A stretch of DNA of 64,000 nt from an uncultured Chloroflexia bacterium (GTDB lineage: Bacteria > Chloroflexota > Limnocylindria > Limnocylindrales > CSP1-4). Where the stretch lies: contig CAWBGT010000001.1 in the NCBI GenBank assembly GCA_963788375.1, positions 7,467 to 71,466 of the forward strand. The letters are read 5' to 3'. A model generated the notes under the pieces. That model ran no database searches, was not told the origin of the DNA, and was given only the letters and a program-made list of their open reading frames with translations. How positions within the stretch are numbered: the stretch's first letter is position 1; each line of letters starts with the position of its first letter. Positions 3,641 to 45,619 of the stretch are shown here, piece after piece. Both the position numbers and the translations under genes were made by a program.

Positions 3641-3853
3641 TCACACGCCCTCGTCCATCTCCTCGAGGATCGCGTCGAAGTTGATGGCGGCGTCACACTC
3701 CTCGCAGATGGGAGGGTCCCAGTCGCCGGCTTCGGGCAGGTCCGTCCGGCCGCAGGTGGAGCAGGCGAACGGCAGGAGGGAGGCAGGGCCAATGACGGCG
3801 TCGACGGATGTCGTCTCGGGCTGGTCACGTCGCCGACGCCAGAAGAGGTTCAT
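3641..3853 (-). CDS. small CxxC...CxxC zinc-ribbon protein
   Basis: 70-aa ORF with CSTCGRTD...CEECDAAI, i.e. two CxxC pairs; acidic C-terminus. Sits 130 bp upstream of, and co-oriented with, the Gly-rich secreted protein gene. Confidence 0.4.
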   Translation of the reverse strand: MNLFWRRRRDQPETTSVDAVIGPASLLPFACSTCGRTDLPEAGDWDPPICEECDAAINFDAILEEMDEGV

Positions 3854-3928
3854 GCCCGCATCCTGCGCCTCGCCCGTGCCACCTGCCTGTCACGGCCGCG
3901 TGCCCGGGATCGAACATAGACTCACGCG

Positions 3929-4855
3929 ATGCAGTACATCGACATCGAGGGAATGCGGCTCTCCCGCATCGGGCTGGGCACCTGGCAGTTCGGGAGCCGC
4001 GAGTGGGGGTACGGAGCCGACTATGCGAACGAGACCGCGCCCGCGCTGATCCGGAGGTCGCTCGAGCTCGGGATCACGATGCTCGATACCGCCGAGATCT
4101 ACGGACCCGGGCGTTCGGAGACGATCATCGGTGCGACGCTCGCGCAGCTGGTGGATGGCCAGCGCAACGGCCTGGTTGTCGCGACCAAGTTCATGCCGAT
4201 CGCCCCTGCGGAGCCGATCGTTGCCTGGCAGGTCGCCGGGTCCCGACGGCGGCTGGGTATGGACACCCTCGACCTGCTGTACGTGCACCAGAAGAACCCG
4301 TTCGTCTCGGCGCGGCGCATCATGCAGGCAGTCCGCCCTCTGGTCGAGGAGGGGCTGGTCCAGCATGCGGGGGTCTCGAACTTCTCGCTGGACCATTGGC
4401 AGGAAGCAGAGCGAGCCTTGCGCGCCCCGGTCGTGGCGAACCAGGTGCAGTTCAGCCTGGTGAGCCCGGCTCCGGCCGCCGATCTCGTGCCCTTCGCCGA
4501 GTCTGCCGGCCGGGTCGTGGTGGCGTACTCGCCCCTGTGCCAGGGCCTGCTCGCCGGGCGCACCGACTGGCCGAGTGCCGGGGGGTTCCGCCGTCCCCAG
4601 GGAATGCTGGCGAGTCGGAAGCCCGGAGTGGAGCCGTTGCGGGTGACGCTTGGGGAGATCGCGGCCGCCCACGGAGCGACCTCCGCGCAGGTGGCGCTGG
4701 CCTGGGTCCTCTCGCACCCGAACACGATCGCGATCCCGGGCGCGCGGACGGTCGAGCAGCTCGAGGAGAACGCCGCTGCGGTAGACCTGGTGCTCTCCGA
4801 CGAGGAGCTGGTCCGGTTGACGACGCTCTCGGAGGCGTTCTTCGGGCGCTCGTAG
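3929..4855 (+). CDS. aldo/keto reductase family oxidoreductase
   Basis: 308-aa ORF; LGTWQFG, MLDTAEIYGPGRSE and IPGARTVEQLEEN are hallmark AKR motifs. Confidence 0.9.
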   Translation: MQYIDIEGMRLSRIGLGTWQFGSREWGYGADYANETAPALIRRSLELGITMLDTAEIYGPGRSETIIGATLAQLVDGQRNGLVVATKFMPIAPAEPIVAWQVAGSRRRLGMDTLDLLYVHQKNPFVSARRIMQAVRPLVEEGLVQHAGVSNFSLDHWQEAERALRAPVVANQVQFSLVSPAPAADLVPFAESAGRVVVAYSPLCQGLLAGRTDWPSAGGFRRPQGMLASRKPGVEPLRVTLGEIAAAHGATSAQVALAWVLSHPNTIAIPGARTVEQLEENAAAVDLVLSDEELVRLTTLSEAFFGRS

Positions 4856-4879: not shown

Positions 4880-5115
4880 CTGAGCCTGCCATGCGCGTTG
4901 AGCCTGCCATGCGCGCCGGACCGCGTCCGGCCACGTGCCGCCCGGCGGCCGGCCCTGCGCCGGACCGCGTCGGGCCACGAGGCCGGCCACGTGCCGCCCG
5001 GCGGCCGGCCCTGCGCCGCACTCGGGCCACGTGCCGGCCACGTGCCGCCCGGCGGCCGGCCCTGCGCCGCACTCGGGCCGGGGGCCGCCCGGCGGCTGTG
5101 GCCGGCCGCGTGCGC
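4880..5115. repeat. GC-rich tandem repeats (17-bp tgagcctgccatgcgcg x2, then about 45-bp units containing ccacgtgccgcccggcggccggccctgcgccg x4)
   Basis: Direct reading of sequence; the same 19-mer ccacgtgccgcccggcggc recurs at about 4931, 4988, 5029 and 5118. Confidence 0.7.
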
Positions 5116-5502
5116 GGCCACGTGCCGCCCGGCGGCTGAACGATCGGGTGCGGGCCGGTCTGCGCCGCTTTGCGGCACATCCATCGGGCGGAGCAGCCTG
5201 CGAGCCGACCATCGCGCCGCTGAGCGGTCGAGAACGGCGGCTCGAGCGACGGTTGAGCCGGTGGACGGCGCGCCGGCCCCGCGTCGGGCCACTCGGGCCA
5301 CGTGCCGCCCGGCCGCCGGCCCCGCGCCGGCCCCGCGCCGCACTCGGGCCACGTGCCGCCCGGCGGCTGAACGATCGGGTGCGGGCTGGTCTGCGCCGCT
5401 TTGCGGCACATCCATCGGGCGGAGCAGCCTGCGAGCCGACCATCGCGCCGCTGAGCGGTCGAGAACGGCGGCTCGAGCGACGGTTGAGCCGGTGGACGGC
5501 GC
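5116..5502. repeat. two near-identical about 156-bp direct repeats (5116-5272 and 5347-5502) separated by about 75 bp
   Basis: Both copies read ggccacgtgccgcccggcggctgaacgatcgggtgcggg...gctcgagcgacggttgagccggtggacggcgcg, with a single g/t difference in cgggccggtc versus cgggctggtc. Confidence 0.85.
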
Positions 5503-5717
5503 GGCAAATGCCAGCGGTGCGCTGGACCGCGTCGAGCACGCTGCACCGCGGCGCGGCGGATGCCGGCGGTCGGCTACGGCGCGCCGACCCCCACGGCGCG
5601 GCGGCCCTCGCGGCGCGGCGGCTGAGGTCGGCTACGGCGCGGCGTGCCGGCCCAGATGTCAGTCCCAGCAACGCGAGACGTAAGCCCCAGCGAACCGTCA
5701 GCGACCAGGATGGGCCG

Positions 5718-6374
5718 ATGACGGCTCGACAGCGACCAGGAGATCAAGGCGCCGCCGATGCTCGCCGTCTTGGCGCCGAGCTATGCCGCGACATCGGGGA
5801 TGCCCGGCGAGGTCTTGGGCTCAGCCAACGCCTGGTGTCCGCCCGAGCCGGGATGTCACCTTCGCAGTACGGGCGGCTCGAGCGCGGTGACCTTAGCTAT
5901 CCATCGCTCAACCAGCTCTGCCGTGCGTGTCGCGCCGTCGGGATGGAGCCGGCCCTCAGGGCCTACCCGTCAGGCGAGCCCATCCGAGATGCCGCGCAGC
6001 TCGCGCTGCTCGCTCGCTTCGAGAGCCTGCTCGTGGCGCCCCTCCGCGTGCGCCGCGAGGTCCCACTGCCGGTCGTCGGCGACCGACGAGCGTGGGACGC
6101 GCGGGTCAGCGACGGCACGGCCAACGCCTCGATCGAAGGAGAGTCGCGCATTCACGACGCTCAGGCGCTCGCCCGGCGCATCGAGCTCAAGTCGCGCGAC
6201 GACCCGAGTGCCGGTGCCGTCATCCTGGTTGTCAACGACACAGCACACAATCGGCGGATCCTCTCGGAACACCGCGAGGCCCTGCGTGGTCAGTTCCCTC
6301 TCGATGGCGCCGCCATCGCCCGGGCACTGCGCCGAGGACGGGTTCCGGATGTGAGTGGGATCATCGTGCTGTGA
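5718..6374 (+). CDS. XRE-family helix-turn-helix protein with about 150-aa C-terminal domain of unknown function (paralog of the 25877..26617 gene)
   Basis: In-frame ATG at 5718 inside ORF 4935..6374; the upstream part of that ORF runs through repeats. HTH segment LGLSQRLVSARAGMSPSQYGRLERGDLSYPSLNQLCRACRAVGMEP. Confidence 0.6.
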   Translation: MTARQRPGDQGAADARRLGAELCRDIGDARRGLGLSQRLVSARAGMSPSQYGRLERGDLSYPSLNQLCRACRAVGMEPALRAYPSGEPIRDAAQLALLARFESLLVAPLRVRREVPLPVVGDRRAWDARVSDGTANASIEGESRIHDAQALARRIELKSRDDPSAGAVILVVNDTAHNRRILSEHREALRGQFPLDGAAIARALRRGRVPDVSGIIVL

Positions 6375-6540
6375 TCTCGGTCGTTCGTCGTGTTCCGCCC
6401 GCCCTTGGAATCCGCCAGTCGGCTCAACCGTCGGATGCAGTGCGACATCCGGCGCCGGCCGGCACATCTATCGCCTAGGGGCGCCGCGCCCACCAACAGA
6501 TGTGCCGCGGACAGGATGGAATCCAACTTCGAGCGACGGT

Positions 6541-6768
6541 TGGACCCCTGGGCGGCACGGAGGTCGCAATTTGGACCCCTGGGCGGCACGGAGGTCGCAA
6601 GGGGACCCCCTGGGCGGACGCCGTCGCGCCGAACCGGGCGTACCGCGCCGGATCTCGGCACGGAGGTCGCAAGGGGGACCCCCTGGGCGGACGCCGTCGC
6701 GCCGAACCGGGCGTACCGCGCCGGATCTCGGCACGGAGGTCGCAAGGGGGACCCCCTGGGCGGCGCAG
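6541..6768. repeat. tandem repeats: 30-bp unit x2 (ggacccctgggcggcacggaggtcgcaa), then 72-bp unit x2 carrying an identical 39-bp insert, then a partial unit
   Basis: Direct reading. The inserts are identical, so this is a tandem duplication and not a spacer array. Confidence 0.8.
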
Positions 6769-6858: not shown

Positions 6859-7401
6859 ATGAGCTTGGATCCGCGTACCCAGGTCGAGGCACCTGTCCGG
6901 GTGGCTCTCACCGGCCTCATGGGCCGCGGCCTCGCGCTGGTGGGAGCTGTCGCGTTGCTCGCCCTGTGGCCCATGGCCGCCAAGCCCGAGGCGGCAATCT
7001 GCGACGCCATCGCGTGCCTCGCAGTCGCGGTCCTGGTGGGCTATGCCGCGGTCATCCGGGTCTCCCAGCGCATCGGCAGCCGTCCCGCGCCCGAGGCTCG
7101 TGAGCGGGCATGGGAACGGGCGAGGGAGATCGATAACGACGATGCCTCGCTGGGCCTGCTCGTGGCCGGCTGGGTGCCGGTGGGCCTGCTGCTCGCGATG
7201 GGTCTCCTGATCTGGCCGCACCTCACGGACCGGAATCCGGCCCTCGCGGCCGCCTGGGTGGTGTTCGGCCTGCCCCCGGTCCTTCTGGCCTGGATGCTGG
7301 CCACCACGACCTGGCTTGACGCCTGTCGCGACGACCTCGCCCGCGCCGAGGAGGAGTCCGACACGCGGCTCCGCCACTACTGGGCGAACGTGGGGCATTG
7401 A
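6859..7401 (+). CDS. hypothetical membrane protein (4 predicted TM helices)
   Basis: First ATG after the repeat block in ORF 6355..7401. Hydrophobic segments LALVGAVALLALWP, CLAVAVLVGYAAVI, LLVAGWVPVGLLLAMGLLIWP and AAAWVVFGLPPVLLAWMLA. Confidence 0.5.
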   Translation: MSLDPRTQVEAPVRVALTGLMGRGLALVGAVALLALWPMAAKPEAAICDAIACLAVAVLVGYAAVIRVSQRIGSRPAPEARERAWERAREIDNDDASLGLLVAGWVPVGLLLAMGLLIWPHLTDRNPALAAAWVVFGLPPVLLAWMLATTTWLDACRDDLARAEEESDTRLRHYWANVGH

Positions 7402-13470: not shown

Positions 13471-13791
13471 GGAACTCCCGTGGCGGGTCACGACGCACGT
13501 GCGTCGTGAGCGGCCCGGCCCACGTGGGGCACCATATCGTCATGCCGGCTGCACGATTCTCGACAGGGCCGGACGTCCCGATGAAAGGTGTTGCGGGCCC
13601 GACGCTCGCGCCCGGGCCGGGCGGGCCCGGGCCGGGCCTCTGGGGCCCGGTTGCGCCCGGGTCGGGCCTGGATCCGGCGGATGAGGCCTCGTATGTGCCC
13701 GGAACGGGCCTGTCAGACACGCTCGCGATCCGAACGGCCGGGTCCGCCTCGGGTGACCCCGTACGTGCCCGATAGCGGGCCTGTCAGGCCC

Positions 13792-13926
13792 GGCCGCGTG
13801 ATGAACCGGGGGGCCGCGTGATGAACCGGGGGGCCGCGTGATGAACCCCGGGCCGCGTGATGAACCGGGGGGCCGCGTGATGAACCCCGGGCCGCGTGAT
13901 GAACCGGGGGGCCGCGTGATGAACGG
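13792..13926. repeat. tandem repeat, about 20-bp unit ggccgcgtgatgaaccgggg, about 7 copies
   Basis: Direct reading. Lies in the intergenic region between the ABC ATPase start (13470) and the ABC exporter stop (14323). Confidence 0.85.
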
Positions 13927-14077
13927 GGGCTGATTGCGCCGCCCACCGGTTCAACCGTCGGCTGAAGCCGCCAACGAGCCGCTCACCGGCACGTTGGGTG
14001 GTCCCAGGAGCCTCTGCACCCAACCGACGTGCCGCCAGGCGGCGCAAACCGGCTTGCACCCTACCGTTCCGCCGCCG

Positions 14078-14290
14078 GGCGGCGCACGCAACGGCGGCGC
14101 ACGCAACGGCGGCGCACGCAACGGCGGCGCACGCAACGGCGGCGCACGCAACGGCGGCGCACGCAACGGCGGCGCCGCAACGGCGGCGACGCGCGACGGC
14201 GGCGCACGCAACGGCGGCGCACGCAACGGCGGCGCACGCAGCGCGGGCGCACGCAACGGCGGCGCACGCAGCGCGGGCGCCCGCAACGCG
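14078..14290. repeat. tandem repeat, 15-bp unit ggcggcgcacgcaac, about 13-14 copies
   Basis: Direct reading. The copies are almost perfect, with variants ggcgccgcaac and gcgcgggcgcacgcaac. Confidence 0.85.
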
Positions 14291-14322
14291 CCCGCCCCGC
14301 CCGCCCGTCGCCGCGGGACCCG

Positions 14323-18110: not shown

Positions 18111-18616
18111 CGGGCCGTCTCGGCTGGCTCGAGGCTGGCGTGCCAGCGCTCTCGGGCGCGACGCATGGCCCGGGCGCCGAGGAGGAAGCCCTCGAGCTCC
18201 TCGTCGGTCAGCTGCGTGAGGAACTCCGCGAGGTGCTCGCGGCGCTCGGCGGCCATCCCGGCGATCAGGCGCCTGCCCTCGGCAGTGATGGCGACGCGGA
18301 TCACCCGCCGGTCCTCGTCGTCACGCTGGCGCTCCACCAGGTCCCGCTGCTCCATGCGATCGACGATGCCGGTCGCGCTGGCCTGGCTGACGTCCATCGC
18401 CTCCGCCAGTGCGCGCATCGCCATGGCGCCGTCGTGCTCCAGGAGGAACAGGATGTTCAGGTGGACGAGGGACAGCCGCCCGGCCGGCCAGTGACGCATG
18501 TTGTGCATGGCCGCGGCGGGCGAGTGAGCGGAGAGCTCGTCAAGCAGCTCGGCGAGCAGGGTCTCACGGGTCACGGGTGGGGTATGGCGGTTTCCCGGCG
18601 GCGTCTGGCGGCTCAC
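18107..18616 (-). CDS. MarR-family transcriptional regulator
   Basis: Winged-helix segment LSLVHLNILFLLEHDGAMAMRALAEAMDVSQASATGIVDRMEQRDLVERQRDDEDRRVIRVAITAEGRRL. First gene of the marR-ABC-ABC operon. Confidence 0.8.
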   Translation of the reverse strand: MSRQTPPGNRHTPPVTRETLLAELLDELSAHSPAAAMHNMRHWPAGRLSLVHLNILFLLEHDGAMAMRALAEAMDVSQASATGIVDRMEQRDLVERQRDDEDRRVIRVAITAEGRRLIAGMAAERREHLAEFLTQLTDEELEGFLLGARAMRRARERWHASLEPAETAR

Positions 18617-18706
18617 TGGCAGCGTCGGACCCTTAGTTGCAGGTAGATGGTCAATGCGGCACGAAGCATATTCGGTGTTCCGCGGCGGCGCAAGTGGCGC
18701 GGCGCG

Positions 18707-24414: not shown

Positions 24415-24500
24415 GCCCTGAGCATGCCCGATGTGCGATCTCGCCGCGCGTGCATCCGCGACCGCGCCTGCATCCGCGACAATGTGGCGCGCGTGGCTTG

Positions 24501-25409
24501 ATGCCCGCCCAGTCGCCTGCCCCAGCCGGAGACCCTTTGACCCGCGCCTTCGACCGCCGCAACCCGCGCCATCTGGCCGGGCTCGTGGTTGCCATCGCGA
24601 TGTGGACGCTGGTGGTCGTGGGCTCGGACCCCAGCGTGGACGTCACGGACCCGCTGAGTGGACGGGTCGTGACCGCGCAGGACGCCCGGTCCTACTACGG
24701 TCTGGACCTGGGTGACCTGTACGCGGGCCGGACCGAGTGGAACACCATTGGCGCGTACCCGTACTCGCCGGTGTTTGCCCAGCTGGTCTCCCCGCTGGAC
24801 CTGCTGCCGTGGCCGGCGTTCGTGGCTGTATGGACGGCAATGCTCATCGGGGCGACCTACCTGATCACCGGCCCCGACCTGTTCCTGCTGGGGCTTGCCG
24901 TCGGGGCGATGGAGATCGCAGGCGGCAATATCTCGCTGATGCTGACGCTTGCGATTGTCGAGGGCTTCCGGCGGCCGTGGACATGGGCGTTCGTGCTGCT
25001 GACCAAGATCACGCCCGGCGTCGGGCTGTTGTGGTTCGCCCTCCGGCGGGAGTGGCGGGCGCTCGCGGTCGCCCTGGGCGCCACGGTCGCCGTGGTCGGC
25101 GTCTCGTTCGCGCTGATCCCGGGGGCCTGGGGGGACTGGATCTCGCTGCTGGCGGCGAACACGGGCAAGGGCGGCACCTGGGCGGCGGTGCCCATCCCGC
25201 TCATCATCCGCGGCCCCATCGGCGTCGCCCTGATCACCTGGGGTGCGTTCCGCAACCAGCGCTGGGTGGTGCCGGTAGGGACGATGCTCTGCCTGCCGGC
25301 GCTGTGGTACGGCTCGTTGTCGATGCTGCTGGGCGTCATCCCGCTGACGACGCCCGAGGAGCGCTCGCTCGCATGGGCGCGCGCCGTGGCGGTGGTCCGG
25401 CGAGCCTGA
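24501..25409 (+). CDS. hypothetical polytopic membrane protein (DUF2029/GT87-like?)
   Basis: In-frame ATG at 24501 in ORF 24450..25409; 8-9 hydrophobic helices. Confidence 0.5.
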   Translation: MPAQSPAPAGDPLTRAFDRRNPRHLAGLVVAIAMWTLVVVGSDPSVDVTDPLSGRVVTAQDARSYYGLDLGDLYAGRTEWNTIGAYPYSPVFAQLVSPLDLLPWPAFVAVWTAMLIGATYLITGPDLFLLGLAVGAMEIAGGNISLMLTLAIVEGFRRPWTWAFVLLTKITPGVGLLWFALRREWRALAVALGATVAVVGVSFALIPGAWGDWISLLAANTGKGGTWAAVPIPLIIRGPIGVALITWGAFRNQRWVVPVGTMLCLPALWYGSLSMLLGVIPLTTPEERSLAWARAVAVVRRA

Positions 25410-25410
25410 A

Positions 25411-25607
25411 CCCGGTTGGGCGCCCGTGGGGCCTCGCGCGCATGCCACGCGGCGGTTGGGCGCCCGTGGGGCCTCGCGCGCATGCCGCTCGGCGGTTGGG
25501 CGCCCGGGGGCCTCGCGCATGCCGCTCGGCGGTTGGGCGCCCGTGGGGCCTCGCGCGCATGCCGCTCGGCGGTTGGACGCCCGTGGGGCCTCGCGCGCAT
25601 GCCACGC
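25411..25607. repeat. tandem repeat, about 40-bp unit ggcggttgggcgcccgtggggcctcgcgcgcatgccgctc, about 5 copies
   Basis: Direct reading. Lies immediately upstream of the second HTH paralog. Confidence 0.85.
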
Positions 25608-25876
25608 AAGGAACCGTGAGCACCGCGTCGCGGACGTGAGCGGCGTGCACGGCCGGAGCACGAATGGCTGCGGAATCGGTCCCTCGCCCGCCGGGCCCTT
25701 GCTCGCGACGCACGAGCGTTGCGGGAGCGCTCGAAGACCTTGCGGCGTACGCACGGCCGCCAAGTTTCGGGCGGGCGCCTGGTCGCCGGGTCCCGGGCGG
25801 GCGCGTCCCGGGCGCACGGCTGCCGGGTCCCGGGCGGGCAAAGTCTGGGCGAACTGACGCCTGTCACGCTGGCCGC

Positions 25877-26617
25877 ATGGCCAGGACCAACCTCCAGATC
25901 CTTGCAGACGAGCATGCCGCCGAACTCCGGCGCGTCCTCGCACAGGACCTCCGACGCATGCGGGAGGACGCGGGCTGCACGCGGGTGGCCGTCGCGTCCC
26001 TTGCCGGCGTGGATCCGTCTCTGATCACGAGACTCGAGGCCCGGGACGTCCACCCGACACTCGAGACATACGCGCGCGTCGCAGCGGCACTGGGCGCCAA
26101 CCTCGCGACGAGGGTGTACCCGGCCACCGGGCCAAGCGTGCGGGACCGCCACCAGGTCCGCACCGCCGAGTGTCTCCTGGCGTCGCTTCACCCGCGCTGG
26201 CACGCGACGCCCGAGGCGGCCGTCCGTCATCCGGTCCGCGGCTGGGTGGATGTCGCCCTGCACGACCCGGCGGCCGCGCTGGTGGTTGCCACGGAGATCG
26301 AGTCGCTCCTCCGCCGGCTCGAGCAACTGCTCAGGTGGAGCCAGGAGAAGGCGGCGGCGCTGCCGTCCTCGGTGGCGTGGCCCTCGTGGTCGGCAGCGGG
26401 GCGACCGGCCATCTCCAGGCTCCTGGTCGTACGTTGGACGCGCCAGAACCGGGAGGTTGCCGGCGACGCCCGCAGGCTGCTGGCAGCCGCCTATCCAGCG
26501 GACCCGAGAGATGCACTCGATGCGATCACTGGAACGATGGCATGGCCAGGCCCGGCGCCGCTCTGGATGCGCCACGAGCGGTCCGGCGCCGGCGCCCTGC
26601 ATCCGTGGCGTCCGTGA
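25877..26617 (+). CDS. XRE-family helix-turn-helix protein with C-terminal domain of unknown function (paralog of 5718..6374)
   Basis: In-frame ATG at 25877 in ORF 25664..26617. HTH segment CTRVAVASLAGVDPSLITRLEARDVHPTLETYARVAAALGANL. The C-terminal region aligns loosely with the first paralog. Confidence 0.6.
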   Translation: MARTNLQILADEHAAELRRVLAQDLRRMREDAGCTRVAVASLAGVDPSLITRLEARDVHPTLETYARVAAALGANLATRVYPATGPSVRDRHQVRTAECLLASLHPRWHATPEAAVRHPVRGWVDVALHDPAAALVVATEIESLLRRLEQLLRWSQEKAAALPSSVAWPSWSAAGRPAISRLLVVRWTRQNREVAGDARRLLAAAYPADPRDALDAITGTMAWPGPAPLWMRHERSGAGALHPWRP

Positions 26618-26618
26618 T

Positions 26619-26693
26619 GCGACTGCCCCCTGGCGGCGACTGCCCCGTGGCGGCGACTGCCCCCTGGCGGCGACTGCCCCCTGGCGGCGACGG
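26619..26693. repeat. tandem repeat, 18-bp unit gcgactgccccctggcgg, about 4 copies
   Basis: Direct reading. Begins at the stop of the HTH gene. Confidence 0.75.
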
Positions 26694-26800
26694 CGTCACC
26701 AGGCGTTGCACGATCGGGTGCGTCCCGGTCGCGCCGCCCGCGTCATGCCCCCCGGCGCGACGCGCCCCGGCGCCACGCGCCTCGCGCCACCCGCGCCCGG

Positions 26801-28015
26801 CTACGAGGTGGCGAGCACCTCGGCGAGCGCATCCGCGAACGGATCCAGGTTCGCCGCCGTGAAGCCCGCGACGTTGATCCTGCCCTTGCCCACGACGTAG
26901 ACCCCGTGCTCGTCCTTGAGGCGGGCCACCTGGCCCAGCGTGAGGCCCAGGAGCGCGAACATGCCGCGCTGCGTGGCGATGGCGCCCCAGTCCCCAGGGA
27001 TGCTGCGTGCCTGGAGCGCGGCGACCAGCGCCCGGCGGTTGTCGTTGATCCGGTCACGCATCCCGGCCAGCTCCACCTCCCAGCGCACCCGGAGGTCGGG
27101 GTCAGCAAGGATGGTCCGGACGATGTCCGCGCCGTGGGCGGGCGGGTTCGAGTAGTTCACCCGGATGGCGATCTTCACGTGGCTCTGGGCTGCCGCGGCA
27201 TCCGCGGCGGAGCCGGCGATCACGATCAGGGCTCCAACGCGCTCCGCGTACAGCGAGAAGGTCTTCGAGAACGACGTCGCTACCAGGAGCTCGGCCCCTG
27301 GCCGGACGAGCTCGCGCAGGCCGGCAGCATCCTCGTCCAGGCCATTGCCGAAGCCCTGGTAGGCGAGGTCCACCAGCGGCAGCAGCCGCCGCCGATCGAC
27401 CAGATCGCCGATCTGCTTCCACAGGGCCGGCGAGGGGTCCACGCCGGTGGGGTTGTGGCAGGCGCCGTGAAGCAGGACGACGTCGCCAGGCGACGCTCCT
27501 TCCAGGGCCGCGAGCATCGCCGCCTCGTCGATCCGGCGGCCCGTCGCATCTGTGTAGGGGTAGGTCCGGAGCTTGAAACCCGCCGCGAGGAACAGCTGGG
27601 GGTGGTTGGGCCAGGTCGGCTCGCTCATCCACAGGGTCTCGCCCGACCCTGTCTGCCGGAGCAGGTCCGCGGCGACCCGCAGCCCGCCGGTGCCACCCGG
27701 CGTCTGGGTTGCCAGGGCGCGTCCCGAGGTGACGGCTTCGTGGTCGGATCCCAGGGCGAGGGCGCGCACCCGCTCGCGGTAGGCGACCTCGCCGTCGATG
27801 GGCCGGTAGAGCTTGCTGCCCGCCGCCTCCGCGAGGCGGCGCTCAGCCTCGATCACCGTGGGCAGGACGGGCGTCCTGCCGGTGGCGTCGACGAACACGC
27901 CGGAGCTGAGGTTGATCTTGCCCTCGCGCGGGTCTGCCTTGAAGGCCTCGGCGAGGCCGAGGATGGCGTCGGGCGGGGCAGGGATGCGGGAGAGTGACGG
28001 GAGCGACACGGGCAT
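26801..28015 (-). CDS. aspartate/aromatic amino acid aminotransferase (class I PLP-dependent)
   Basis: Internal start MPVSLPSL at codon 25 of ORF 26801..28087. Motifs TSFSKTFSLYAERVGAL (PLP-lysine region) and HNPTGVDP. Confidence 0.85.
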   Translation of the reverse strand: MPVSLPSLSRIPAPPDAILGLAEAFKADPREGKINLSSGVFVDATGRTPVLPTVIEAERRLAEAAGSKLYRPIDGEVAYRERVRALALGSDHEAVTSGRALATQTPGGTGGLRVAADLLRQTGSGETLWMSEPTWPNHPQLFLAAGFKLRTYPYTDATGRRIDEAAMLAALEGASPGDVVLLHGACHNPTGVDPSPALWKQIGDLVDRRRLLPLVDLAYQGFGNGLDEDAAGLRELVRPGAELLVATSFSKTFSLYAERVGALIVIAGSAADAAAAQSHVKIAIRVNYSNPPAHGADIVRTILADPDLRVRWEVELAGMRDRINDNRRALVAALQARSIPGDWGAIATQRGMFALLGLTLGQVARLKDEHGVYVVGKGRINVAGFTAANLDPFADALAEVLATS

Positions 28016-28187
28016 GACCTCGACGGGCTGGGGAACGGGGCGCCGAGGCGACTCTACACGCCCGCACAGGTTGCGGGCCGGTGACACCGGAAATCCCGAT
28101 GCAGCGAGGGCCCGGAACCGAGTGGGGGACTGGGGCGGTAGGCTTCGCAGGACCCATCACCGGCGAACCGCGAGGAGGTGCACCTGC

Positions 28188-44926: not shown

Positions 44927-45619
44927 ATGAGGCGTCTCGCCATCTCCCTGTCCGTCGCCGCCCTTACCGCCCTCGGGACGGTCGCGGCCGTCTCGGCCGC
45001 GGATCCGACGGCCGCTCCGACACCCGCGGCGACCGCGACCCCGGCGGCAACCCCGGCCACGGATCCGGCCCCGGCCACGGATCCGGCCCCGGCCACGGAT
45101 CCGGCCCCGGCCACGGATCCGGCCCCGGTGGTCAACGGTCCGGCGACCGGCACCATCTCGGGGATCCTCGGCCTCAGCCAGGCCGAGATCCAGCAGCTCC
45201 GTCTCGAGGGCAAGACGCTGGCCCAGATGGCGGCGGACAAGGGGATCGACCCGCAGCGCCTGGTCGATGCGCTCGCCGCACGATGGGGCGCACGAATCGA
45301 CGCTCGACTCGCTGCCGGTGCCATCACGGTCGACGAGGCCGCTGCGCTCAAGGCAAACGTGTCGGTCCAGGCCAAGGCCATGGTCAACCAGGCGGCCGCC
45401 GGCGGCATGCGCGGCGGTGCCGTGGGTGCCGGCCCGGGTGCCATGGGTGGCCACGGGGCGATGAATGGACAGGGGGCGATGAACGGGCGGGGCCAGAGTC
45501 GTGACGGCACGGCAGGCGGTGGCATGGGCGGCAGCATGGGCCGGCACGGCGCCCGTGCCGGCTCCGCAGCAGGGTCGGGGACCTGCCCACTGACCGCCAC
45601 GTCCGCGACGCACTCCTGA
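44927..45619 (+). CDS. secreted protein with (P-A-T-D-P-A) x4 repeat and Gly/Met/His-rich C-terminal tail
   Basis: ATG at 44927 gives signal peptide MRRLAISLSVAALTALGTVAAVSAA. 18-bp DNA repeat ggatccggccccggccac x4 at 45060-45130. Tail contains GGHGAMNGQGAMNG and GGMGGSMGRHG. Confidence 0.55.
   Translation: MRRLAISLSVAALTALGTVAAVSAADPTAAPTPAATATPAATPATDPAPATDPAPATDPAPATDPAPVVNGPATGTISGILGLSQAEIQQLRLEGKTLAQMAADKGIDPQRLVDALAARWGARIDARLAAGAITVDEAAALKANVSVQAKAMVNQAAAGGMRGGAVGAGPGAMGGHGAMNGQGAMNGRGQSRDGTAGGGMGGSMGRHGARAGSAAGSGTCPLTATSATHS

Follow-up and report, generated by a model that had tools for sequence, protein, structure and literature searches.

In restriction-modification (R-M) systems, the gene of the controller (C) protein and a PD-(D/E)XK endonuclease gene are co-transcribed, with the C gene lying first. 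Lysine-less PD-(D/E)XK sites are seen in BamHI (D..E-x-E) and BglII (D..E-x-Q). Intergenic minisatellites, or variable-number tandem repeats (VNTRs), are carried by high-GC bacteria, an example being the mycobacterial interspersed repetitive units (MIRUs). The operators of C proteins are two, spaced 15 bp centre to centre and overlapping the promoter; their C-box consensus is GACT-N3-AGTC, with the C.AhdI site containing GGACT-N3-AGTCC, and the recognition helices read HRTY or DR(T/S)Y, the latter in C.AhdI (PMC2175313). Repetitive extragenic palindrome (REP)-associated tyrosine transposases (RAYTs) are encoded by single-copy genes flanked by their own REPINs in a type-specific manner (PMC3337134). 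Here we describe HTH2, a gene for a helix-turn-helix (HTH) protein lying between tandem arrays of short repeats in a 64,000-nt stretch of DNA (the window, to which all positions refer). The G+C content of the window is 71.6% and its relatives are Chloroflexota metagenome-assembled genomes (MAGs) of the order Limnocylindrales, whose sampled loci are denoted L001 and so on. We interpret HTH2, with about even confidence, as an autoregulator-like gene for an HTH-nuclease protein, preceded by an operator module of four phased boxes, with the arrays being dispensable, lineage-specific expansions seeded at the edge of the module.

The HTH2 protein and its family

The gene and the predicted domain of its product are located as follows.

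25877-26617, + strand: HTH2 gene, 246 aa, with a Pfam match to HTH_31
26132-26614 (aa 86-246): PD-(D/E)XK nuclease-like domain of HTH2, from AlphaFold2 (AF2) and Foldseek

Gene calling relied on codon log-odds, with the supplied gene calls as the training set, and the long start of HTH2 was backed by 246-aa orthologs showing 83-88% identity at 100% query coverage. The preliminary description had placed an XRE-HTH gene at these positions, which was confirmed except for the size of the product, given as 247 aa and actually 246 aa plus the stop codon. HTH_31 matched aa 21-78 of HTH2 (E = 2.3e-10, Pfam), and the scores of 41 bits for HTH2 and 35.5 bits for its paralog HTH1, against a cut-off of 27, assigned the two proteins to the XRE family. 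Identity as an XRE antitoxin of the HipB/HigA type was not supported, with an NCBIfam score of 23.5 bits against a cut-off of 71.65 and no toxin gene adjacent. The public gene calls P0001, P0121 and P0230 (219, 173 and 143 aa) shorten both paralogs and lose part or all of the HTH, P0001 beginning at Met28 of HTH2; the full-length starts supported by orthologs differ from the public calls in the regions 25877-25957 and 5718-5942. The codon bias of both HTH genes was weaker than that of their neighbours (G+C at third codon positions of 0.83 and 0.75 vs 0.87-0.90), and their codon log-odds were 30 and 25, when compared to more than 100 for neighbours of similar length.

Sequence searches of Pfam, NCBIfam, PADLOC and the PDB gave no match to the C-terminal 160 aa, the HTH alone being recognised. 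The AF2 model of full-length HTH2 had a predicted local distance difference test (pLDDT) score of 89. The HTH dominated the fold search with the full-length model, and a separate model was therefore made of the C-terminal domain (pLDDT 95, predicted TM-score 0.90), showing an a-bbb-a-b topology (helix 6-18, strands 24-31, 37-45 and 50-57, helix 63-75 and strand 93-101). Foldseek analysis of this domain against the PDB detected the R2 endonuclease domain, SfsA, McrC, Can2, XisH, Bax1, SdaI and MunI, while that against viral models detected MmcB-like, Mrr, Cas4, VRR-NUC and RecB-like proteins. The matches were weak (E = 1e-3 to 0.3, TM 0.3-0.5), yet nearly all of them were PD-(D/E)XK nucleases. 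Four residues, D90, D125, E140 and K158, were invariant in 36 diverse family members including the HTH1 group, and Q93, E113, S143 and R153 were almost invariant across these members. The conserved set in HTH2, D90, D125, E140-x-E142-S143 and K158, corresponds to D...D...E-x-(E/Q/D)-S...K in the family. The third position of the strand-3 motif E-x-(E/Q/D) was never K, and the invariant K158 sits on the following helix instead. HTH2 is thus predicted by the structural model to be a fusion of an XRE/controller-like HTH with a PD-(D/E)XK nuclease-like domain of about 160 aa. Among 1.84 billion proteins, 292 cluster representatives belonged to the family at E <= 1e-3, and its architecture was uniform, the domain beginning near aa 86-95 in most full-length members, which have about 250 aa. 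It is a small family restricted to Limnocylindrales (Chloroflexota).

An alignment of HTH1 with HTH2 had 209 columns and 30% identity (E = 5e-11). It spanned the HTH and the whole C-terminal domain, so that the C-terminal domain previously proposed to be shared by the two proteins was borne out, with the HTH matching as well. Orthologs of HTH2 (62-85% identity) were found between GT87-family glycosyltransferase and convergent aminotransferase genes in all five loci concerned (L001, L002, L105, L106 and L107), and the order aldo/keto reductase, HTH1, small hypothetical protein and UvrD was kept in L003 and L024. The best pair of inverted repeats bracketing HTH2 was 22 nt long with 73% identity, which was not significant. 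As each of the two genes has its own syntenic orthologs and no meaningful inverted repeats surround HTH2, HTH1 and HTH2 are old paralogs that have been vertically inherited in Limnocylindrales. The idea of a regulator duplicated together with its cognate array did not survive, since the paralogs are only 30% identical and each has orthologs in conserved synteny.

Phased palindromes beside the two paralogs

Alignment of the upstream regions of the HTH2 orthologs revealed a conserved element of about 165 bp, here termed E-H2, which the preliminary description had missed. An nhmmer model of the element detected it upstream of eight HTH2-type genes, with E = 1e-14 to 1e-31 for L001, L002, L105, L106, L107, L025 and L027. 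The alignment consensus contains four copies of the 15-bp palindrome GTGCGT-N3-ACGCAC, spaced by 41, 62/63 and 41 bp in the orthologs and by 104 and then 41 bp in the window, where they are arranged as follows.

25592-25756: conserved four-box module E-H2 (nhmmer model and ortholog alignment)
25595-25609: box 1, GCGCAT-GCC-ACGCAA
25636-25650: box 2, GTGAGC-GGC-GTGCAC, degenerate, predicted by phasing
25699-25713: box 3, TTGCTC-GCG-ACGCAC
25740-25754: box 4, TTGCGG-CGT-ACGCAC

As the intervals of 41, 63 and 41 bp amount to 4, 6 and 4 helical turns, the boxes would lie on one face of the DNA. The same architecture was present in distant family members with the GGACT-containing box GACTGSCAGTC, brought to light by a generic scan for long-range inverted repeats that itself gave a weak excess (7/68 at p <= 0.05). 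This box was 10-fold enriched upstream of the genes (2.42 vs 0.24 per kb), as exemplified by L070 with sites at -225, -183, -120 and -78, and had no site in the window. Histograms of box spacing across the family peaked at 41/42, 62-64, 103/104 and 147 bp. The box type also varied together with the recognition helix. GTGCGT boxes accompanied 8 of the 14 proteins with the helix S-[LVM]-[IV]-[ST]-R-x-E and 4 of the 66 others (p = 4e-5), and GACT-N3-AGTC boxes accompanied 20 of the 53 proteins with Y/F at the helix position and 2 of the 27 others (p = 0.004). The conserved position, the helical phasing and this protein-DNA co-variation indicate that the boxes are likely the cognate sites of the family, and that E-H2 is the putative operator set of HTH2.

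Consensus scanning of 25300-26900 for promoters and terminators gave no matches. A GATAAGC-like word preceded start codons of both paralog families by about 25-50 nt (12/82 flanks vs 1/509 control segments; for example, L002 3965-3971, L024 5739-5745 and L076 408-414), and is probably a -10-like promoter element. A second module of the E-H2 type was found between MarR and ABC2-transporter genes in L105 (2481-2638) and L106 (1077-1240), and the syntenic spacer of the window (18575-18706) contained no copy of the module.

The HTH1-type counterpart of E-H2 is E170, a dispersed element of about 155 nt. Its copies in the window, together with HTH1 and the arrays around it, form two further repeat islands, islands 1 and 3, with the surroundings of HTH2 being island 2. 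The arrays were defined by Tandem Repeats Finder (TRF).

4881-5138: upstream arrays of island 1, with 18-, 22-, 51- and 40-bp units (TRF)
5119-5272 and 5350-5504 (region 5119-5504), + strand: two E170 copies, 99% identical, each with four GCCGC-N3-GCGGC boxes at 40-52-41 bp
5718-6374, + strand: HTH1 gene, 218 aa, paralog of HTH2
6407-6561, + strand: third, diverged E170 copy (nhmmer E = 5e-33)
6540-6763 (region 6407-6763), + strand: 31-bp and 73-bp arrays, the units starting in the last box of E170 (TRF)
13934-14087 (region 13792-14288), - strand: E170 copy of island 3, which has no HTH gene

The four GCCGC-N3-GCGGC boxes of E170 were phased at 40-53-40 bp in 11 copies, and the motif GAGCGACGGTTGAGCCGGTGG previously noticed in the first island is the 3' end of the element. 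The upstream array units of island 1 carry perfect GCCGCCCGGCGGC boxes at spacings of 56, 51, 40 and 40 bp. In island 3, which extends over 13471-14322 between two ABC-transporter genes, E170 is flanked by two arrays, 20 bp x7 and 15 bp x14, and the unit of the latter ends in the left half of box P1. E170 occurred on both sides of HTH1 in the window and in L024, and, in the loci sampled from the relative OY970218.1, at eight sites or more. Copies at different sites were 60-75% identical, while nearby copies were closer to each other (85% for the upstream and downstream copies of L024, 78% for the two of L021). The L021 copies (6024-6176 and 7230-7382), both in convergent intergenic regions, bracket a gene for a small SHOCT-like membrane protein and a cupin gene. 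Boxes of the HTH1 ortholog in L108 read GCCAC-N3-GTGGC. The HTH1 ortholog of L005 is accompanied by perfect CTCGC-N3-GCGAG palindromes, two upstream and two downstream (3838-3897 and 4779-4852), the members of each pair being 53 bp apart as in the middle spacing of E170. A genome-wide scan with the DNA pattern gave mostly chance matches in unrelated taxa, with 4 of 18 loci being relevant, and the strict pattern gave three loci in a 3.6-Mb relative.

Tandem arrays and their origin

The remaining features of island 2 and the two neighbouring genes are given below.

24450-25409, + strand: GT87-family glycosyltransferase gene, upstream neighbour (Pfam GT87, E = 1.4e-8)
25413-25603: tandem array, 40 bp x 4.8 (TRF score 340, 94% matches, one unit of 37 bp)
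26619-26691: tandem array, 17 bp x 4.3, unit GCGACTGCCCCCTGGCG (TRF score 139, 96% matches)
26697-26735, + strand: decayed fragment resembling the 5' third of E170 (nhmmer E = 0.005 within the island)
26730-26801: degenerate 15-bp array, x4.7, 74% matches (TRF score 70)
26801-28087, - strand: class I/II aminotransferase gene, downstream neighbour, convergent with HTH2 (Pfam E = 2.6e-73)

The 40-bp array begins 3 nt behind the stop codon of the GT87 gene, and its 4.8 copies agree with the roughly five described earlier. The array of about four copies reported 3' of HTH2 was also real, although its unit is 17 bp rather than 18 bp and its first position lies 2 nt after the TGA (26615-26617). The degenerate 15-bp array, which reaches the stop codon of the aminotransferase gene, was absent from that list. 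An in-frame, perfect 18-bp x4.3 repeat (PATDPA units) in a secreted-protein-like open reading frame at 44927-45619 is coding and unrelated to the intergenic arrays.

The arrays varied greatly among relatives. L001, with an 85% identical ortholog, had no array, and the 40-bp unit was represented there by one copy of its 3' part; arrays were also absent from L105, L107, L003 and L108. The arrays of L002 (77, 25 and 13 bp) and L106 (30/99 bp and 17-19 bp) consisted of units unrelated to those of the window, as did those of L004, L005 and L024. Downstream of the HTH2 orthologs, a 13-bp array was found in L002 and 17-19-bp arrays in L106, L001 had none, and L105 and L107 had no intergenic space. 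As the recognition helix of L001 is identical to that in the window and yet no array is present, the arrays are not required operators. Their proposed role as conserved operators was therefore not supported, the arrays being absent or unrelated at orthologous loci with the same or a similar recognition helix. An alternative as noncoding RNA was dropped: the arrays and E170 folded like shuffled sequences (z = +1.4, -1.3, -1.8 and -1.9, with +1.4 for the 40-bp array), RNAalifold of 12 E170 copies gave a covariation term of +0.62 that did not support an RNA structure, and an Rfam scan of the window gave no match.

The distribution of arrays in 11 long-read sources was compared between the flanks of family genes and the remaining intergenic regions (100 bp or longer). 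Arrays were detected in 13/19 family-gene flanks and 15/71 other regions (odds ratio 8.1, p = 2e-4), and accounted for 24.8% of the noncoding bp beside family genes vs 7.1% elsewhere, an approximately 3.5-fold difference. The enrichment remained when the window was excluded (9/15 vs 11/51, p = 0.009). In short-read contigs the odds ratio was 2.5 (p = 0.046), with arrays covering 8.9-10.2% vs 6.3% of bp. In 56% of family loci there was no array on either side. Arrays beside family genes were much rarer in the short-read contigs (L025-L104) than in the long-read MAGs, and many of the contigs ended near the gene. This contrast suggests that assemblies break or collapse at the arrays, which is probably why the short-read enrichment was weak. 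In these genomes, arrays occur in intergenic DNA generally.

The repeats of island 2 were further compared with those of island 1, as a core common to both had been proposed. The word CGGTTGRRC was indeed present 12 times in the window against 2.5 expected, a number reached by none of 100 shuffles, and nine of the 12 lay in the two HTH islands with one more beside the third repeat island. However, the profile of the island 1 element aligned with the 40-bp unit, at the P1 end of E170, with a non-significant E of 0.34. CGGTTG-type words showed no family-wide enrichment either, so the proposed core is not a general operator. Island 2 lacks an intact E170, the 39-nt fragment at 26697-26735 being the matching part (blastn, 87.5% over 32 nt with 5137-5168). 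Each 40-bp unit contains the left arm and spacer of box 1 (GCGCAT-GCC). Three of these units carry GCCGCTCGGCGGT (matches at 25484, 25521 and 25561) and all four 17-bp units carry GCCCCCTGGCGGC (matches at 26625-26688), both being HTH1-type boxes with one mismatch. The link to the HTH1-type box is suggestive rather than proven, because such a GC-only box is frequent by chance (54 matches at <= 1 mismatch vs 40.8 expected window-wide). Derivation of the 40-bp unit by amplification of the box1-box2 interval of either module was rejected, since no convincing similarity was seen by eye. A 17-bp array of operator half-sites (GGGGACTGCCCCTCGCC) was present at L076 90-230 upstream of a 49%-identical family member; the 17-bp unit of the window has the same period and also contains its 9-mer GACTGCCCC. 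The description of the repeats as binding-site arrays accordingly held in part: the islands are built on palindromes of the protein-binding type, the island 1 units have complete boxes at 40-56 bp, those of island 2 have versions of this box with one mismatch, and arrays are enriched beside family genes, but the arrays are not conserved.

In four independent arrays the units diverged from the intact box right after the left arm and spacer of the outermost box: GCGCAT-GCC| in the window, GTGCGT-GGC| in L002, GACT-GCC| in L076 and GCCGC-C| in island 3. Slippage at the palindromes could produce this junction rule, as could selection against additional complete boxes or cleavage by the nuclease domain.

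In the interpretation given at the outset, HTH2 dimers would occupy the four boxes on one DNA face and interact cooperatively, and this occupancy would result in autoregulation of HTH2. The 40-bp and 17-bp arrays would be young, dispensable products, probably of slippage or unequal exchange, seeded at the outer edge of palindrome-rich modules and adding decoy sites at most. A number of observations weigh against it. The boxes of the window are degenerate, with 2-3 mismatches of 12 positions in boxes 1, 3 and 4 and four in box 2, and single box matches at this stringency were not enriched window-wide (32 vs 63 expected), so that the box assignment in the window relies on orthology and phasing. 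A simple promoter-operator role does not predict that L027 and L029 have E-H2 also downstream of the gene, nor that E170 copies lie in convergent intergenic regions (L021), because of which E170 is not solely a promoter element. A purely neutral origin explains neither the enrichment of arrays beside family genes (24.8% vs 7.1% of bp), nor the start of four independent arrays at one and the same position of the outermost box, nor the agreement of the 40-bp period with the box phasing. The invariance of the catalytic-type residues speaks for a C-terminal domain that does more than mediate dimerisation. Alternatively, the arrays themselves might be functional, as phased decoy or titrating operators or a nucleoprotein scaffold serving mainly the HTH1-type paralog, so that the paralogs would cross-regulate. 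The perfect GCCGCCCGGCGGC boxes of island 1 extend the 40-bp phasing of E170, one-mismatch boxes recur every 40 bp and every 17 bp in island 2, nhmmer places the 40-bp unit at the P1 end of E170, family genes have arrays beside them more often than expected from other intergenic regions, and the half-site array of L076 has intact operators on either side. We nevertheless consider such a function rather unlikely, as orthologous loci with the same or a similar recognition helix have no arrays or unrelated units, several arrays hold half-boxes only, the nhmmer match is not significant, and a unit containing the common GC-only box has a p of about 0.01-0.03.

An active nuclease aimed at its own boxes, that is, a domesticated controller-endonuclease fusion, might instead generate the arrays by cutting and repair and spread the modules by duplication, in the manner of RAYTs and REPINs. 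The invariant D/D/E/K in a predicted restriction-enzyme-like fold, the junction shared by four independent arrays and their enrichment beside family genes agree with this, as do the modules on both sides of HTH1 (window and L024) and of HTH2 (L027), the further intergenic copies including convergent ones, the homogenised nearby copies of L024 and L021, and the likewise single-copy, REPIN-flanked and type-specific RAYTs (PMC3337134). It is unlikely, however, because the module copies are few and old (60-75% identical) with no large near-identical population as in REPINs, only three loci in the 3.6-Mb relative matched the strict pattern, the classic (D/E)xK motif has another residue for its lysine, palindromes alone can seed slippage at their centre, and most short-read family loci have no arrays. 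That the arrays are generic minisatellites unrelated to the HTH genes, found on both sides through coincidence and long spacers, agrees with their presence in other intergenic regions (15/71, 7% of noncoding bp) and in island 3 without a family gene, the marginal short-read enrichment, and the 56% of family loci free of arrays. The clear long-read enrichment without the window, the repeated inclusion of box sequence in the units and the mapping of the junctions to boxes make it very improbable. It had also been suggested that the repeats are the terminal ones of a non-autonomous mobile element, which would carry the HTH gene. The weak codon bias and low codon log-odds of the HTH genes and the E170 copies on both sides of HTH1 would be compatible with this, but those copies are direct and not inverted, the best inverted repeat around HTH2 is the 22-nt pair at 73%, transposase is absent, and the gene has the same insertion site in all relatives checked, down to 62% protein identity, with neither an empty site nor a target duplication seen. 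With terminal inverted repeats, target duplication and a variable insertion site, the marks of a transposon or miniature inverted-repeat transposable element, all lacking at HTH2, we give this origin hardly any credence.

Comparison with known systems

An autoregulator-like HTH-nuclease with a phased four-box module would, if true, represent an uncharacterised, lineage-restricted family in which a C-protein-like HTH is joined to a restriction-enzyme-like domain with an intact catalytic-type site, a domain covered by no profile library searched. It would offer testable operator predictions in the form of four phased palindromes tracking the recognition helix, a possible example of chromosomal domestication of R-M controller and endonuclease genes, and a hypothesis for why certain intergenic sites of these Chloroflexota, which are abundant in soil and fresh water, accumulate minisatellite-like arrays. 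Such arrays are a probable cause of breaks in short-read assemblies and might be of use for distinguishing strains.

The C proteins (C.PvuII, C.AhdI, C.Esp1396I and C.BclI) have an XRE-type HTH as in the HTH2 family, and C.BclI, C.Esp1396I and C.AhdI were among the structural matches of the HTH domain of HTH2, although by sequence this domain is no closer to C proteins than to HigA or ClgR. C proteins exert autogenous control via several palindromic boxes upstream of their own gene, and the sequence arrangement proposed here for HTH2 would be the same. In the larger subfamily of the family, the box GGACT-N3-AGTCC is the C-box and the helix D-x-x-[YF]-L resembles that of C.AhdI, whereas HTH2 has the helix PSLITRLE and boxes of the type GTGCGT-N3-ACGCAC. 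HTH2-family proteins of about 250 aa with a fused nuclease-like domain differ from C proteins of about 80 aa, and four boxes at 41-63-41 bp differ from two operators 15 bp apart. The neighbours of HTH2 are housekeeping genes in conserved synteny, unlike those in R-M clusters, and a DNA methyltransferase was not found near HTH2, the methyltransferase Pfam families within 10 kb in the orthologous loci being of the small-molecule type only. The order of the C gene before the PD-(D/E)XK endonuclease gene in R-M systems makes a C-endonuclease fusion an attractive origin, but membership in the C proteins is not established because of the spacing of 41/63 instead of 15 bp, the lack of a nearby methyltransferase and the different boxes in the window.

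The predicted domain has in common with BamHI/BglII-type nucleases the a-bbb-a-b core, the strand-2 acid (D125) and the strand-3 E-x-(E/Q/D) (E140, E142). Unlike in those enzymes, the place of the motif lysine is taken by the invariant helix residue K158. The HTH genes resemble RAYT genes in being single-copy and vertically inherited, with different paralogs having different element types, further intergenic copies of these palindrome-rich elements, and flanking by the own type of element for HTH1 (window and L024) and for HTH2 in L027. They differ in that HTH2 is not an HUH/Y1 transposase (no Pfam or NCBIfam match), the modules are few, with sampled copies 60-85% identical, when compared to hundreds of near-identical REPINs, and four phased boxes take the place of the REP doublet. 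It is conceivable, though distinctly unlikely, that the family is a domesticated controller-endonuclease fusion that is left without its methyltransferase partner and whose recognition is limited to its own phased boxes, with occasional cleavage giving rise to the arrays with fixed junctions and to the copying of modules to new intergenic sites. By analogy with RAYT and REPIN, such a fusion would be a vertically inherited partnership of nuclease and element, based on PD-(D/E)XK. The arrays share with VNTRs the intergenic tandem units of 13-77 bp, often right after stop codons, that vary in number and unit between close relatives. In contrast to a dispersed VNTR family, units of the window type are locus-specific, seeded at palindromic boxes and enriched beside one gene family. 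The finding combines known kinds of elements, namely XRE/C-protein autoregulation, PD-(D/E)XK fusions and bacterial VNTRs, in an unusually clear cis-architecture.

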